Positions 650 through 12,681 of a stretch of DNA of 64,000 bases are shown here, one piece after another. Within the stretch, counting starts at the first letter, position 1; each line of letters begins with the position of its first letter. A model generated the notes under the pieces. It did not search any database. It had not been told where the DNA came from and saw only the letters and a list, made by a program, of their open reading frames with translations. This stretch comes from a virus. The DNA is taken from positions 1 to 64,000 of the IMG/VR virus record IMGVR_UViG_3300036893_000033, one strand, 5' to 3'. The position numbers and the translations under genes are program-made.

Positions 650-772
650 CAGCGTAGCTGGAACTGCGCATCCCGCGTGAGCTGCCGCGCCTCTGGGCAG
701 TAACGAGGTAAATTTTCGTGGATAAATTAAAGGGAATTATATACTTGACTCCCACAGCGAAATCAGCGGGTT

Positions 773-1771
773 ATGAATAGCCCGTTCCCCTATTTCGGAG
801 GGAAGCGCACGGTCGCGGCGGCTGTGTGGGCGCGGCTCGGATCGCCTGCGCAATACATCGAGCCGTTTTGCGGATCGGCAGCGGTTTTGCTGGCGTGCCC
901 GCGCCCGGCTGCGCTTGAAGTCGTGTGCGACGGGTCCGGCTTCATCGCCAATTTCTGGCGCGCGGTCAAGCATCAACCGGCTGCGGTTGCGGAGTGGGCG
1001 GATTACCCCGTATCGCACATTGACCTCGGCGCGCGCCACGGCTGGCTTATGGCGCAGCGGGATCGCATCGGCGCGGCAATGCAAGACCCGGACTGGGCAG
1101 GCGATGCCAAGGTTGCCGGTTGGTGGCTGTGGGGGCAATGCTGCTGGATCGGTTCCGGCTGGTGCGACTGGTTCGGCAAAATCCCGCATGCGAGCGATGC
1201 CGGGAGGGGCGTACAGGCGATAGGCAAAATCCCGCATGCGAGCGATGCCGGGAGGGGCGTACAGGCGATAGGCAAAATCCCGCATGCGAGCGATGCCGGG
1301 AGGGGCGTACAGGCGATAGGCAAAATCCCGCATGCGAGCGATGCCGGGAGGGGCGCAGACGCCTTGCTGACCTCCTGCGGGCGCACAGCATGGGCGTGGC
1401 TGCATCGGATCGCTGACAGGCTTGAGCGGGTGCGCGTGGTGCATGGTGACTGGTCGCGCTGCCTCAACAATCATTTCGGTGGTGACGACACGGCAGTATT
1501 CCTTGACCCGCCTTATAGGTCCTACGAGGCGCTCTACGGCAAGGCTGGCGCGGTTGCCGATGCGGTCGAAGCATGGGCGCGCGAGAACGAGCACCTGCGG
1601 ATCGCCCTATGCGGGCACCGTGACGATTACAAGCTGGCCGGATGGGACGCCGTGGAGTGGTCGCGCGGGCGGCTCACGTATTCGGGCGGCCAAACCACGG
1701 ATAGCGAGTGCGTCTGGTATTCGCCAGCTTGTCTCCCGGCAGTGCTCACGCAAGAAAGGCTTTTCGCATGA
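773..1771 (+). CDS. DNA adenine methyltransferase (Dam/D12 class)
   Basis: PFPYFGGK, YIEPFCGSAAV (motif I), FLDPPY (motif IV). Confidence 0.9.
   Translation: MNSPFPYFGGKRTVAAAVWARLGSPAQYIEPFCGSAAVLLACPRPAALEVVCDGSGFIANFWRAVKHQPAAVAEWADYPVSHIDLGARHGWLMAQRDRIGAAMQDPDWAGDAKVAGWWLWGQCCWIGSGWCDWFGKIPHASDAGRGVQAIGKIPHASDAGRGVQAIGKIPHASDAGRGVQAIGKIPHASDAGRGADALLTSCGRTAWAWLHRIADRLERVRVVHGDWSRCLNNHFGGDDTAVFLDPPYRSYEALYGKAGAVADAVEAWARENEHLRIALCGHRDDYKLAGWDAVEWSRGRLTYSGGQTTDSECVWYSPACLPAVLTQERLFA
1175..1355 (+). repeat. 48-bp in-frame tandem repeat, about 3.8 copies (GKIPHASDAGRGVQAI)
   Basis: Identical units start at 1175, 1223, 1271 and 1319. Confidence 0.95.
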
Positions 1772-2175
1772 GCGCCGTGGGAGTTAAGTATATAAGTCCC
1801 AAATTAAAGCCGCCCACCACCGCCCAGATCACCACCGAACTCATGCTGCGAATCCCTCGCGATATCCCTGGATGCCTGCACTGGCGGAATAATACTGGCG
1901 TAGCGCGCGCGGATAACAGGTTCGTTCCGTTTGGTATGGTTGGCAGTGCCGACATGCTCGTTGTATTGCCGCCGCGCGGTAGGCTCGCCGGGGTGGAAGT
2001 GAAAGGACCCGGCGACCGGCAGAGCGTGATCCAGGCCGCTTGGGAACTGGCAATACAGCGTGCAGGTGGGGTGTATGTTTTGGCTGAGAAGATCAAGTGG
2101 GGCGTTGGTGATCGGGGACGTTTGGTGCCTGACGTCTCCGGCGTGATTGCGCGGTTACGGGAGGCGTGCGGATGA
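1768..2175 (+). CDS. VRR-NUC family nuclease / Holliday junction resolvase-like protein
   Basis: WRNNTG...GSADML...GVEVKGPGDRQS..Q..W (PD-(D/E)xK); ATG overlaps the MTase TGA. Confidence 0.8.
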   Translation: MSAVGVKYISPKLKPPTTAQITTELMLRIPRDIPGCLHWRNNTGVARADNRFVPFGMVGSADMLVVLPPRGRLAGVEVKGPGDRQSVIQAAWELAIQRAGGVYVLAEKIKWGVGDRGRLVPDVSGVIARLREACG

Positions 2176-9422: not shown

Positions 9423-9848
9423 TCATTCGAACCCCCGACAACCACAATAATACGAATCAAACTCATAAGCCCCGTGCGCAACGAATCCCCGGCACCGCCC
9501 CTGCTCTACTACGGTACGTCGGTTGCCTGGTACGTTCCGCGCCATGCTGTCGGGGTCGTGCGCCGCCCATGCGTAACCGCACAGTCCGCAGCTATCGACA
9601 GCCCGCCGCGACCCTTCTCCCATGTACTCGAAGAACGCCAGCCTCATGCTGGATGGCTGCGTGTGGCCACAGGAGCACCGCGCTACGCGCCCGGACAGGT
9701 CCGGAGTGGCCATGGGCACCGGGTCGGCACCGATGCCCACGCAGATCGCGCATGATGGATTGCCGTGACCGTCTGTGGAGTTGGCCGCGTGGCCGCAGGA
9801 GAGCATGGTGTCAGAGAGCATGGTGTCAGAGAGCATGGTGTCAGACAT
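9423..9848 (-). CDS. Cys-rich phage hypothetical protein with N-terminal 15-bp repeat
   Basis: MSDT(MLSDT)2MLSCGH; multiple CxxC; ends DSYYCGCRGFE. Confidence 0.65.
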   Translation of the reverse strand: MSDTMLSDTMLSDTMLSCGHAANSTDGHGNPSCAICVGIGADPVPMATPDLSGRVARCSCGHTQPSSMRLAFFEYMGEGSRRAVDSCGLCGYAWAAHDPDSMARNVPGNRRTVVEQGRCRGFVAHGAYEFDSYYCGCRGFE

Positions 9849-9981
9849 GGGATACCCCGTATATTAATCCAACCAGGCACAGCGCCAGCAACCCATACCA
9901 CAACAGCAGGCATCGGGCGTGCCGCTCCTCGTCCGTAGCATTGCGCCAGAATTCTTTGATGTCTTTGCCGAGCGCCTTCAT
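9841..9981 (-). CDS. Small membrane protein
   Basis: MKALGKDIKEFW...LLLWYGLLALCLVGLIYG; GGAGG RBS overlaps the IS target duplication. Confidence 0.55.
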   Translation of the reverse strand: MKALGKDIKEFWRNATDEERHARCLLLWYGLLALCLVGLIYGVSHV

Positions 9982-10024
9982 GGTGTCCTCCAAAGGGGAA
10001 TTATATACATGAGTACAGAATGCC

Positions 10025-10150
10025 TCACTTCTTGGACGCACGCTTCGCCCTCTTTTTCTCGCGGCGCTTCGAAGCCTTCGCTTTCTCCTTTGGCTTGTAG
10101 TTCAGGACTACGTCGGAGATCAGGTCTAACTCGGGTGGCGTCTTACTCAT
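10025..10150 (-). CDS. Small basic peptide at the IS1595 end (41 aa)
   Basis: MSKTPPELDLISDVVLNYKPKEKAKASKRREKKRAKRASKK*; hand-translated, below the ORF-track cutoff. Confidence 0.55.
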   Translation of the reverse strand: MSKTPPELDLISDVVLNYKPKEKAKASKRREKKRAKRASKK

Positions 10151-10310
10151 GTTTAGTTGCCTTTCGTGCTGCCCACTTCATCGCGTCATCTGCGTTTTTC
10201 TTCAGGAATCGCGCCAACTCCCTGAGTCCGAGTTGGCTGTACGTGGATGCCAACACCCGCATCCTTCCGGCTTCGTCAAGCGCGAACTCTCGTTGCTGTT
10301 CATCATTCAT
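10143..10310 (-). CDS. IS passenger hypothetical protein (55 aa)
   Basis: MNDEQQREFALDEAGRMRVLASTYSQLGLRELARFLKKNADDAMKWAARKATKHE*; overlaps both neighbours. Confidence 0.5.
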   Translation of the reverse strand: MNDEQQREFALDEAGRMRVLASTYSQLGLRELARFLKKNADDAMKWAARKATKHE

Positions 10311-11109
10311 CGTCGCCCCCGTCGTTACACATACAGGGAATTTGATCCGGCTCGGGGAGTTCTTCAGCTTGCGCCGGGGTAATGTTTACGAACTGACTCC
10401 AGGCGAATTTCCGGCCAAGCCCTTTGACTGCTGGCGTTCCATCTTGCAGGAGCCTATCGGGCTGACTGTGATACGCAACCGCGTTGCGCTCCATTGCCAA
10501 TGCGTCCTCGAAAAGATCGGGGTGAGTGTCCCGAAGCCAGATTATTTCGTGGGGTTTAGACGACGGGCAGAAGTAACAGGCAGACTTCATGGGAATCGGC
10601 AGGCCTGCCCGCTCCAGCGCGTCAAGACACTCTTGTTGACCCCATCCCCATTCCTTCAGCAAGTATCTGTAGCGATAGCGTCCCTTTTCAAAAATCCCGC
10701 TCCCGCGCTTCTCTCCCGCGTGGTAGCCAATGATTTTGGTGATGATCTGATCCCGCCCGTAGGTCTGCGTCTCGTACCGCTCCATGATCTGATGCTTGAA
10801 TTTTACGGAGCATCCCGGAAATCCGTAGGACTTAGACGGCAATGTACCGTTTCGGAAACAACTCTCGCGGAGACTGTCCCGCCAATGCCCAACAGTGATA
10901 ATTCCACGGTCGAGATTGCGGACTACCCACGGTCGCATGTACCGATCAACGTAGTCATAGGTTTCCGGCTTCTCTCCGCGCTTTTCTGGATCACTGCCAG
11001 CCGTGTCCGCGAAGATGATGTAGTCAGGCGGTTCGATGCCCTTCTCTTTCATGCCAACCAGCATCGCGCTACCGTTGATCCCGGCCCCGTAGGACATTCC
11101 GGTAATCAT
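10303..11109 (-). CDS. PAPS reductase-like (PP-loop) passenger protein
   Basis: MSYGAGINGSAML, IIFADT, CSVKFK, IIGYHAGE, PMKSACYFCP. Confidence 0.75.
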   Translation of the reverse strand: MITGMSYGAGINGSAMLVGMKEKGIEPPDYIIFADTAGSDPEKRGEKPETYDYVDRYMRPWVVRNLDRGIITVGHWRDSLRESCFRNGTLPSKSYGFPGCSVKFKHQIMERYETQTYGRDQIITKIIGYHAGEKRGSGIFEKGRYRYRYLLKEWGWGQQECLDALERAGLPIPMKSACYFCPSSKPHEIIWLRDTHPDLFEDALAMERNAVAYHSQPDRLLQDGTPAVKGLGRKFAWSQFVNITPAQAEELPEPDQIPCMCNDGGDDE

Positions 11110-12050
11110 GCCGACACCTTCGCAATCAACCGCTCATACGTGAGGCGTTTCCCGACAATGGCGTCAATGAACGATTCCAGCCGCCGCATGGTGTGGCGCT
11201 TCACGTCGCCTTCGTTCAGGCGGAACGTGAACTCATCGACGTATCGGTGCAGATGCTTCGGAGACACCTGATGGTAAACGCCATGAATGCCGCGCTTCAG
11301 AACCGCCCAGACCGATTCAATGCCATTCGTGTGGGCTACGCCGTTGACCCACTGGCCAGCGGAATGGTTGCAGGTTTCGTGCCGGAAGAACAGGCCGTTC
11401 AGGTCAGTGTACGCGCCGAATTCGTCCGTGTAAATCTGGCTGCCAGCTTCCACCGCGCCGTGAATCTCGTTCTGGACCGTGCCCGCGTCCGTGGAGTCCA
11501 CCACCATAGCGACCGTGCGGCCACCAGCGCCACGCTCCCGCATCCCGAGGACGGCAGTCTTGCCGACGCTCCCGCGTCCAGCCTTGAGCTTTTTGTGCTC
11601 GTGTTTGTTCTTTTCCTTGCCACCGACAAACGTCTCATCAATCTCGATGATGCCCCGGAGTTTGTCGATGTTGTCGGGCGACGAACAGGCTTCCCGCAAC
11701 CGGCCCAAAATAAACCAAGCGGTTTTCTGGGTCACGCCGATTTCCTTCGCCAACTGCATCGAACTGATACCCTTGCGGGCCGTGACAACCAGGTACATCG
11801 AATAGACCCACTTGTGAAGCGGAACCTTCGACCGTTCAAACACCGTGCCAGTCCGAACCGTGAAATCGAAGTTACAGGCGTTGCAGTGATAGAACCCCAA
11901 CCGCTTGCGGACGGTGACCTGTTCACCAGACCGGCAGTCGGGGCAAACCGTGCCAGTGGGCCAGAGCCGCGATTCGAGATAGACCCGCGCCGATTCGTTG
12001 TCGGGGAACATCTCGAAGAGTTTGAAAGTGCTGATGGTCGAACGGCTCAT
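11106..12050 (-). CDS. IS1595-family transposase
   Basis: Zn ribbon CPDC...CNAC; KGISSMQLAKEIGVTQKTAW; EIDETFVGG, YTDE, HTNGIESVW, YVDEFTFR. Confidence 0.95.
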   Translation of the reverse strand: MSRSTISTFKLFEMFPDNESARVYLESRLWPTGTVCPDCRSGEQVTVRKRLGFYHCNACNFDFTVRTGTVFERSKVPLHKWVYSMYLVVTARKGISSMQLAKEIGVTQKTAWFILGRLREACSSPDNIDKLRGIIEIDETFVGGKEKNKHEHKKLKAGRGSVGKTAVLGMRERGAGGRTVAMVVDSTDAGTVQNEIHGAVEAGSQIYTDEFGAYTDLNGLFFRHETCNHSAGQWVNGVAHTNGIESVWAVLKRGIHGVYHQVSPKHLHRYVDEFTFRLNEGDVKRHTMRRLESFIDAIVGKRLTYERLIAKVSA

Positions 12051-12119
12051 GACTTAATTGTAGATGAGTACAGAGGCGAACGCAAGCGAAAATCGTCTGT
12101 ACTCATGTATATAATTCCC

Positions 12120-12232
12120 CTCCAAAGCTTCCGCAACTGATACCACAGCATCGCGCAGCCTGACCCGAAGAAGAATCCGCCAAGCCACAAGCACAGTTCC
12201 ATTACGCCCCGCTCCGCTGGGGTGAGGGTCAT
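12120..12232 (-). pseudogene. Small membrane-protein gene interrupted near its 3' end by IS1595
   Basis: Empty-site reconstruction gives MTLTPAERG...QLRKLWRTP* with the stop coupled to the ATG at 9981. Confidence 0.6.
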
Positions 12233-12681
12233 GACTTAACCCCTGACGGCTTCACGTTCGGATCAACGCCCTCAGGCTCCTCCGCTGCTTCCGGGTATCT
12301 TCGTGGTGTGCCTGCTTCCGCAATCCGCTTATCAATCGCAGCCAGCCTCCGCGCGGACTGCTCCCCCGCCTCGTGGCGCAACGCCTGAAGCGCCAGCAGT
12401 TCCGTCGAGTACAGGTGTAGCGGGCGCTGCGATGTGGTTTTATCCCAACCATGAAGTGAATGATGAACGGAACTGGAGCACGCCTTGCCGACTTCATCCG
12501 CGTAGGAATTAAACATCCATCCCTTAGTCAGAATCATTCCAGTCCACCCCGGCCGCGGCGGCGGAAGGTCGGGCTTCACCACTGCCGTTCTCCGCATGGC
12601 ACGCTCCAGCATTACTTCCCGTGCCAACTGCTCTATGGTGGCCTCCAGCGAGGCTAACTGTGCTTTCTCCGTCTTCGTCAT
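12229..12681 (-). CDS. Phage hypothetical protein
   Basis: 150-aa ORF with AAAGGA RBS. Confidence 0.65.
   Translation of the reverse strand: MTKTEKAQLASLEATIEQLAREVMLERAMRRTAVVKPDLPPPRPGWTGMILTKGWMFNSYADEVGKACSSSVHHSLHGWDKTTSQRPLHLYSTELLALQALRHEAGEQSARRLAAIDKRIAEAGTPRRYPEAAEEPEGVDPNVKPSGVKS

Follow-up and report, generated by a model that had tools for sequence, protein, structure and literature searches.

An IS1595-family transposon with a PAPS-reductase-like passenger in an uncultured soil phage, and its family as a probable vehicle for DNA-modification genes

We analyzed the first 64 kb (64,000 nucleotides, called the window below) of a 94,887-bp IMG/VR record, IMGVR_UViG_3300036893_000033, a linear sequence of an uncultured soil phage estimated to be 87% complete. 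Positions 9996-12119 of the window are a 2,124-bp element of the IS1595 family, which lies between two phage genes and carries, beside its transposase, a gene for a protein resembling 3′-phosphoadenosine-5′-phosphosulfate (PAPS) reductases. The element is intact and probably recently inserted, and belongs to the passenger-carrying IS1595-family transposons (transporter insertion sequences, tIS). We propose that its family is a vehicle for DNA-modification genes and that the cargo of this copy acts in a DNA-hypermodification route; to this explanation as a whole we assign a probability of about 0.72. Direct observation covers the element's anatomy, its family, the range of cargos and the links by gene context; transposition, regulation, enzyme chemistry and cross-mobilisation are inferences and are worded conditionally below.

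The inverted arms at 9994-10019 and 12096-12121 are complementary at 26 of 26 positions. The true terminal inverted repeat (TIR) accounts for 24 bp of this, and the other 2 bp come from an 8-bp direct repeat, CTCCAAAG, which flanks the whole 2,124 bp (Table 1). An initial annotation made from the letters of the sequence had described perfect 24-bp TIRs and an 8-bp duplication, and both were recovered. The four open reading frames (ORFs) of the element, all on the minus strand, overlap start to stop. The element sits where the stop of one leftward phage gene formerly overlapped the start of the next. Of these two genes, the upstream one (12047-12232, minus strand) now reads 24 codons into the element and formerly stopped two codons past the insertion point. 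In the downstream one (ATG at 9981, minus strand), the left copy of the duplication restores the ribosome-binding site, so that a GGAGG still stands 5 nt ahead of the ATG. The sequence and the ORFs thus agree with the earlier statement that the duplication covers most of the GGAGG of the downstream gene and that only the last codons of the upstream gene were affected. In the proposed sequence of events, this copy would have inserted at the stop/start junction and left both genes usable. With the whole-element DNA as query, no similarity to GenBank phages was found, and plasmids gave a single 106-bp match at 72.6% identity. Rfam returned nothing at E ≤ 0.1 over 9500-12600.

Table 1. Coordinates of the element and of the related cassette in the window.
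Feature	Position	Strand	Evidence
Left copy of the target-site duplication, CTCCAAAG	9988..9995		sequence and repeat comparison
Distal TIR (far from the transposase), 24 bp, GGGAATTATATACATGAGTACAGA	9996..10019		100% complementary to the other arm
41-aa conserved small basic family protein (MSKTPPELDLISDVVLNYKPKEKAK...)	10025..10150	-	83 unique homologues
55-aa orphan passenger ORF	10143..10310	-	coupled on both sides by 8-nt overlaps
268-aa PAPS-reductase-like, PP-loop-type cargo	10303..11109	-	phrog_424; start overlaps the transposase stop (ATGA)
IS1595-family transposase, 314 aa	11106..12050	-	Pfam zinc ribbon and DDE
Subterminal inverted copy of the inner end (12061-12074) and -10-like TACAAT (12057-12062)	12057..12074	-	repeat pairing
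Transposase-side TIR, 24 bp	12096..12119		arm complementarity
Right copy of the target-site duplication, CTCCAAAG	12120..12127		sequence
Transposase-less cassette with D12-class adenine methyltransferase (PF02086, 2.5e-07) and 8-bp duplication AAATTAAA	732..1800	+	

The transposase matches DDE_Tnp_IS1595 (PF12762) at 1.6e-47 over profile positions 1-153 of 153, and its N-terminus matches Zn_ribbon_IS1595 (PF12760) at 5.8e-08. C36, C39, C56 and C59, as well as D138, D209 and E245, are retained in at least 95% of 38 transposase relatives; the last three residues are the putative catalytic triad. Such a zinc-ribbon/DDE transposase would recognise GGGAATTATATAC-type ends and insert into an A/T-rich 8-bp target, which would be duplicated in the process. 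Thus, the anatomy and the domain matches support the initial description of an autonomous IS1595-family element with a PAPS-reductase-like passenger.

Elements with GGGAATTATATAC ends were found in viral contigs and in metagenome-assembled genomes (MAGs) of Acidobacteriota and Alphaproteobacteria. The viral contigs yielded 42 transposase relatives at 63-99% identity. End pairs delimited 25 of these loci; 22 have perfect 8-bp duplications, one has a duplication with one mismatch, and two have none. An end-pattern scan of viral contigs, covering at least 120 stretches, added at least 33 duplication-flanked elements in 79 loci and at least 14 in the other 40 loci. In bacterial genomes, 56 family loci were detected (23 with perfect duplications), mainly in peat and soil MAGs of Acidobacteriota and Alphaproteobacteria, and these two groups are the likely hosts. 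Family members occupy many different sites, each with its own duplication. The duplicated targets of 49 viral family elements are A/T-rich, with an A+T content of 0.82 against 0.43 in the surrounding loci, and position 2 of the duplication is A or T in all 49. The flanking genes were oriented on the same strand in 57 cases and on the opposite strand in 37, as called by a crude ORF caller that misread the window's own left flank in this GC-rich DNA; these counts were therefore not used as evidence on co-orientation.

Read in the transposase orientation, the members share one plan: end, slot A, transposase, slot B, small basic ORF, end. Slot A is empty or holds 430-950 bp with diverse small ORFs; slot B is empty or holds up to 1.6 kb in viral copies, and is larger in genomes. 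Altered forms of this plan were also found. L383 consists of an end, the last 35 transposase codons (80% identical) and a PAPS-like gene at 77% identity, and is read from this sequence as an internal deletion of a window-like element. L385, a remnant rearranged further, retains the tail of a window-type cargo together with the small ORF and a methyltransferase. Deletion derivatives are also represented by L042 and L044, and in L006 one element is nested in another. The family also includes solo ends, rearranged pairs without duplication, and elements of 285-476 bp without a convincing gene. Internal deletion of the transposase gene would yield end-bounded cassettes that retain only cargo.

Two sets of multiple copies were observed. 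In one Poriferihabitaceae MAG, nine loci (L355-L360, L362, L367) hold one 4.2-kb cargo-carrying version whose methyltransferase is seemingly split. The duplication is perfect at three of the nine, and at several the flanks do not match, a pattern suggestive of recent bursts and subsequent recombination. A complete 94.7-kb phage contains two family copies, L015:4686-5690 and L023, in which the transposase genes are 5′-truncated and the proximal end is missing; one remnant is fused to 105 unrelated N-terminal residues. The cargo of one copy is a pair of PP-loop and DpdA-like genes, and that of the other is an N6/N4 methyltransferase.

A recognisable DNA-modification gene is carried in slot B by 16 of 23 elements or remnants, according to a hand tally made without a formal background rate of modification genes. 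Seven of them have an N6/N4 methyltransferase (L010, L027, L023, L159, L186, L144 and L217), three a C5 methyltransferase (L206, L161 and L039, the last with an HNH nuclease) and two a phrog_757 methyltransferase (L198 and L385). PAPS-like genes are present in three (the window, L074 and L383), and L015 holds a phrog_424 PP-loop protein together with a DpdA-like protein (phrog_887 at 3.1e-60). Among the 15 distinct transposase-less cassettes with a credible ORF, eight carry modification genes: the D12 methyltransferase of the window, five N6/N4 methyltransferases, a Mom-like protein (PF25680, 2.3e-18) and a QueD-like protein (PF01242, 5.3e-12). The other seven encode a DHH phosphoesterase, a DUF3307 protein or ORFs without assigned function. 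Methyltransferases paired with likely nucleases are among the cargos found in bacterial genomes. The initial annotation had suspected an enrichment of modification enzymes in this TIR family, and the survey bears this out, with DNA-modification genes dominating both slot B and the cassettes. There is an excess of modification genes in the family cargo. Since slot B holds mostly such genes and transposase deletion would give cargo-only cassettes, we regard the family as a probable vehicle, which would pass DNA-modification modules (anti-restriction or restriction-modification) among soil phages and Acidobacteriota/Alphaproteobacteria hosts.

A 1,155-bp transposase-less cassette at L145:9791-10945, flanked by the duplication CTAAATTG, contains a QueD-like gene, a small zinc-ribbon ORF and a gene for a phrog_15826 protein. 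This cassette may be a small 7-deazaguanine-related module.

The methyltransferase cassette of the window (732-1800) has neither a transposase nor the small basic ORF and is inserted at a gene junction. GGGAATTATATAC occurs without mismatch at 732, 9996 and 12119 (minus strand), and with one mismatch at 1800 (minus strand). At up to two mismatches the window contains five matches, against 0.68 expected from shuffles, and five were reached in 1 of 100 shuffles. The first 13 TIR bases therefore equal the left end of the cassette, as had been noted earlier. The relatedness claimed for the element and the cassette also holds: they share the 13-bp outer end, 8-bp duplications and one family. Overall, 18 of the 24 end positions match: positions 1-13 are identical, and all six mismatches fall within positions 14-24. 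The inner end is GAGTACAG in the element and GACTCCC, the commonest type of the family, in the cassette. In the elements of 38 transposases, positions 17-22 vary from one element to the next but are the same in both arms of a given element. GACTCCC-type ends are also present in, for example, L010, L176, L198 and L206, and the GAGTACAG type is confined to the window, L074, L015, L023, L327 and two TnpB cassettes, L004 and L005. A strict correspondence of the inner end with the transposase clade was considered, and proved true in part only. At 1176-1345, the methyltransferase ORF of the cassette contains about 3.5 in-frame repeats of a unit (GGCAAAATCCCGCATGCGAGCGATGCC...) some 48 bp long.

Cross-mobilisation of the methyltransferase cassette by the resident transposase is possible, as judged from these ends. 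There is a chance a little short of even that the resident transposase does not serve the cassette, and that the two arrived separately, a transposase of another subtype being supplied by the host or a co-infecting phage. The six inner mismatches favor such separate arrivals, as do the agreement of inner ends within each element and their variation among elements, with the cassette having the commonest type. A complete 106-kb phage that carries a cassette of this family and no transposase points in the same direction. However, transposases 75-80% identical to that of the window use other inner ends (ACTACC in L006/L009, ACTCCC in L011/L012). Thus, the inner end may not decide specificity.

The extra ATGAGTACAGA of the initial annotation corresponds to an additional copy of the inner end at 12061-12074, in which 13 of 14 positions are complementary to 12096-12109. 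This copy overlaps the -10-like TACAAT, which stops 6 nt ahead of the transposase ATG. The inverted pair over the putative transposase promoter was thus found as first described, and the reading as a promoter is based on comparison with sister copies. The same left-end layout is present in 7 of 17 left ends compared (window, L074, L327, L010, L206, L176 and L027): a -35-like TTGACT within the end or TTGACA just past it, a 17-18-nt spacer, a -10-like box, 6 nt, and the ATG, with the inverted copy of the inner end in the -35/-10 spacer. The -35 of the window, TTGCGT, is weak. An RNA hairpin between the end and the inner copy had a stability like that of shuffles (z = -0.57); therefore, the inner copy was treated as a DNA site. 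The sequence at 12057-12074 is probably the promoter/operator region of the transposase. In the proposed mechanism, a weak promoter built into the element's own end would drive the transposase gene, and the inverted copy over it would probably act as an operator, so that the promoter would be self-repressed. The transposase mRNA may be leaderless because the -10-like box is only 6 nt from the ATG, and the three downstream genes would be translationally coupled to the transposase gene.

The small basic ORF begins with M-K-T-P-P-E-L-D-x-I-A-D-x-V-L-x-Y-R-P-K-P-K, followed by a basic tail, and 83 unique versions were found at the same place in family elements. Its core has a median ratio of nonsynonymous to synonymous substitution rates of 0.32, a value biased because the ORFs were selected by the motif itself. 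In five cases, the motif stands at the N-terminus of a longer ORF, namely four methyltransferases (L039, L148, L347 and L349) and one 106-aa ORF (L217). In these four methyltransferases, which are of the C5, N6/N4 and N6 types, ELDxIxDxVLxYRPxxK is fused in frame in a tag-like manner. Neither Pfam nor PHROG gave a match for the 41-aa version in the window, which, being a conserved gene of the family, belongs to the vehicle and not to the cargo. The earlier claim that the transposase is coupled to a PAPS-like gene and two small ORFs was correct as to the overlaps, but one of the two small ORFs is not cargo. The real cargo is the 268-aa PAPS-reductase-like gene and the 55-aa orphan ORF, for which neither a Pfam or PHROG match nor a tblastn homologue in the fetched loci was found.

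The 268-aa protein matches phrog_424 at 5.7e-25. Homologues at E ≤ 1e-3 number 355, and viral contigs gave at least 565 stretches. Among 36 aligned relatives, 20 match PF01507 weakly (best 2.4e-07) and two touch the NCBIfam phosphoadenylyl-sulfate reductase model; the PAPS-reductase label of the window protein is based on phrog_424 and on the PF01507 matches of the relatives. ESM Atlas returned just labels of the type "PAPS reductase family". PP-loop ATP pyrophosphatases have an N-terminal phosphate-binding loop of SGGxDS type. The family has an N-terminal loop SFGGGxNS, which in the window protein reads S6-Y-G8-A-G10-I-N12-G13 (S-x-G-x-G-x-N), and one long relative matches the PP-loop model PF01171 at 3.7e-05. 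Seven cysteines are invariant in alignment A1 (84, 100, 161, 178, 181, 259 and 261), and the C-terminus, PCMCxDG, contains two invariant cysteines. In another relative, P0128, an inorganic pyrophosphatase is fused to the PAPS-like domain. Three long relatives (P0148, P0134 and P0137) have LAGLIDADG-type domains, probably inteins.

In 79 of the 80 best viral loci, the PAPS-like gene lies outside such elements and its neighbors are replication-module genes, and single-protein patterns detected no close relative of the cargo in viral contigs. PAPS-like genes in or against family elements are of at least five sequence-distinct forms. The window clade comprises the window, L383 and L385, the latter two from other samples. 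L074 is a complete 1,882-bp element with the duplication TTGAGTAT and the end subtype of the window; its transposase is 75% and its cargo 39% identical to those of the window. A PAPS-like gene adjoins a family end in L226 and L237, where the partner end was not found. The phrog_424 member of L015 is distant and is paired with the DpdA-like protein, and in L142 and L205 an element abuts a truncated PAPS-like gene.

A link to DpdA appeared in several comparisons. In one protein, P0126, DpdA (PF23859, 4.5e-71) is fused to a PAPS-like domain. DpdA-like genes flank 5 of 80 PAPS-like loci and 0 of 199 control viral loci (Fisher p = 0.0018); L078 and L079 possibly represent a single lineage. Conversely, a gene of PAPS-like or PP-loop type is present at a distance of 0.4-5 kb in 11 of 80 DpdA loci and in 0 of 80 TnpB loci (p = 0.0007). 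The end-pattern set was excluded as a control, since in six of its loci PAPS-like genes are found at the family elements. In two complete phages with both genes (L070, 61 kb; L015, 94.7 kb), the PAPS-like gene is 0.7 kb from DpdA or directly adjacent to it. QueC (PF06508), QueD and FolE were absent from these two phages, and control genomes were positive for all three. Substitution for QueC alone was therefore rejected as the role of the PP-loop protein, since QueD and FolE are lacking too. No description of PAPS-reductase-like partners of DpdA was found in the open-access literature searched. From the cargo slot and the gene context, we give about an even chance that the 268-aa protein is an ATP-pyrophosphatase-type enzyme of phage DNA modification. 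With its seven conserved cysteines, it would most likely adenylate a substrate in a phage DNA-hypermodification route.

DndC and SspD act in phosphorothioation, and QueC acts in preQ0 synthesis. The cargo protein resembles these enzymes in superfamily membership (at family level), the glycine-rich N-terminal loop, the conserved cysteines and the DNA-modification context. Unlike DndC and SspD, it stands alone, with about 250-270 aa and no Dnd partners in the cargo. It also differs from QueC, as PF06508 finds nothing in the phages with DpdA and PAPS-like genes, and from the named PP-loop enzymes, as no curated model scores the window protein above its threshold. The protein is unlikely to be a DndC/SspD-like enzyme introducing phosphorothioate into phage DNA. 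This idea agrees with the PAPS-reductase superfamily and with conserved cysteines that could hold an iron-sulfur cluster; according to a review, DndC and SspD are the PAPS-reductase-type components of phosphorothioation systems, which also need a cysteine desulfurase, an ATPase and a DNA-recognising component (PMC12707154). However, no such partners were present in the cargo or among the commonest neighbors of the 80 loci, where no dedicated Dnd search of the loci or the whole record was made, and the context links point to DpdA, not to Dnd genes.

The protein could also be a true PAPS/adenosine-5′-phosphosulfate reductase (CysH), that is, a sulfur auxiliary metabolic gene carried as chance cargo without a role in DNA, which we consider quite improbable. 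Phrog_424 and many source names do label the family PAPS reductase. CysH has a C-terminal catalytic ECGLH-type motif. No such motif is found in alignment A1; instead, the family keeps the glycine-rich PP-loop-like motif, the seven cysteines and the PCMCxDG terminus. Moreover, the window protein misses PF01507 at E ≤ 0.1 and just two of the 36 relatives touch the reductase model, relatives are fused to DpdA and to inorganic pyrophosphatase, the DpdA neighborhood is enriched in both directions, and the gene occupies a slot that otherwise holds methyltransferases. A preprint on tailed viruses of archaea assigns such genes to sulfur assimilation, but its virus HRTV-29, with a "PAPS reductase" so interpreted, also carries a lone DpdA and a YaaA homologue (10.1101/2021.05.26.445827). 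The same preprint cites Salmonella phage 7-11 for DpdA-only 7-deazaguanine DNA modification (cited in 10.1101/2021.05.26.445827). Like such DpdA-only systems, the two complete phages above have DpdA without QueC, QueD or FolE, and they add a PAPS-like gene; in contrast to DpdA-only systems, the window phage shows no DpdA in searches made without a positive control.

Several observations weigh against the proposed role of the family and its cargo in DNA modification, or against parts of the mechanism. A single copy of the element is present in the 94.9-kb record, and no related phage with an empty site was found by a search via a flanking gene. Besides the informal character of the cargo tally, 7 of the 23 slot-B cargos and all four slot-A cargos tested have no recognised function, and the bacterial-genome cargo includes several membrane proteins without an assigned role. 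The 268-aa protein has no Pfam match at E ≤ 0.1 and no NCBIfam match, its PP-loop departs from the consensus (A9 and G13 in place of the G and S of relatives, respectively), and a profile search of the PDB gave only chance hits (pentatricopeptide-repeat), PAPS reductase scoring E = 0.7. Among the 120 proteins listed, the DpdA fusion occurs once. DpdA is not nearby in 75 of the 80 PAPS-like loci, whose neighbors are ordinary replication-module genes, and searches without a positive control found none in the window or the 94.9-kb record, which is estimated to be 87% complete. Finally, a consensus promoter scan called no promoter at the transposase start of the window.

The single copy, together with the solo ends and duplication-less pairs of the family, would also fit a plain insertion sequence of about 1.1 kb plus trapped phage DNA, mobilised once via a stray second end. 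This is highly improbable: the 8-bp duplication flanks the entire 2,124 bp, the family's small basic gene stands before the distal end, as it does in the 83 unique cases, L074 repeats the layout with its own duplication, L383 and L385 have the same cargo clade with transposase remnants in other samples, and no related phage was found with the 268-aa and 55-aa genes at this place without the ends.

Terminal inverted repeats and an 8-bp target-site duplication characterize the IS1595 family in the ISfinder feature list, and tIS were reportedly the subject of work by Siguier, Gagnevin and Chandler in 2009. The element is like a tIS in its zinc-ribbon and DDE transposase, its inverted ends, its 8-bp duplication and the passenger genes between the ends. 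At present, tIS are restricted to the IS1595 and IS66 families, according to the TnCentral preprint (10.1101/2021.05.26.445724). Unlike the known tIS, the family described here occurs in phage as well as bacterial genomes, has two cargo slots and a distal small basic protein that is sometimes fused to cargo, carries mainly DNA-modification genes, and has many transposase-less single-gene derivatives. Passenger-carrying IS1595 elements are thus already known, and the design and cargo logic of this family extend the known type. No description of phage-borne IS1595 cargo elements was found in the open-access literature searched.

TnpB genes were observed between the same kind of ends. A TnpB clade (PF07282, PF01385 and PF12323) lies exactly between IS1595-type inverted ends in 1.17-1.35-kb cassettes with no transposase inside (L004:7525-8738, L247-L268 and L229). 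Of 80 TnpB loci, 17 are bounded in this way, and these are 17 of the 20 loci at 47-100% identity. The end of the L004 cassette equals the 24-bp end of the window letter for letter, with the TnpB stop codon inside the end, and the complete 106-kb phage that contains L004 encodes no IS1595 transposase. An 8-bp duplication was found in one distinct TnpB cassette (L268/L229), and about eight others have none. At L250:2069-2098, the right end of a TnpB cassette contains a solo family end of 22 bp, flanked by an 8-bp duplication of its own, AATCTATA. L249, identical in other respects, lacks this solo end, which may represent a footprint or an insertion that was abortive. In eukaryotes, Fanzor/TnpB genes have been captured inside DDE transposons. 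The phage TnpB clade is similar in its position between IS1595-type inverted ends, whereas it differs from the eukaryotic Fanzor captures in being prokaryotic and phage-borne, in cassettes without a transposase and mostly without target duplication. TnpB together with IS1595 was not described in the open-access literature searched, and TnpB cassettes with these ends would be a prokaryotic parallel to Fanzor capture in DDE transposons.

Apart from these elements, a 15-bp unit is present in three exact copies in tandem at 9799-9845 of the window (17-nt matches at a spacing of 15). They lie at the 5′ end of a minus-strand gene (9423-9848) and encode a repeated MLSDT at the N-terminus of its product.

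Phages evade host restriction largely by DNA modification, and the acquisition and swapping of the genes involved are poorly understood. Our results suggest that a known transposon type, the tIS, appears as a modular carrier of modification genes in phages and their hosts. Its cargo ranges over methyltransferases and Mom-like, QueD-like, DpdA-like and PAPS-like proteins, and in bacteria includes whole restriction-modification pairs. Only tentatively do we go further and propose jointly that the stand-alone PAPS-like proteins of phages are not sulfur-metabolism genes but an undescribed class of DNA-hypermodification enzymes, acting over part of their range as ATP-using partners of DpdA-type guanine exchange in phages without a preQ0 pathway of their own, and that this IS1595 lineage is a dedicated vehicle of such modules; equally tentative are the features that this joint proposal gives the vehicle, namely an end promoter, two cargo slots, a small basic "tag" protein and transposase-less derivatives including the TnpB cassettes. 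The common phage "PAPS reductase", which virome studies usually class among the auxiliary metabolic genes for sulfur, would become a candidate DNA-modification enzyme with DpdA as its stated partner, and the family would offer a route for the rapid exchange of anti-restriction functions.

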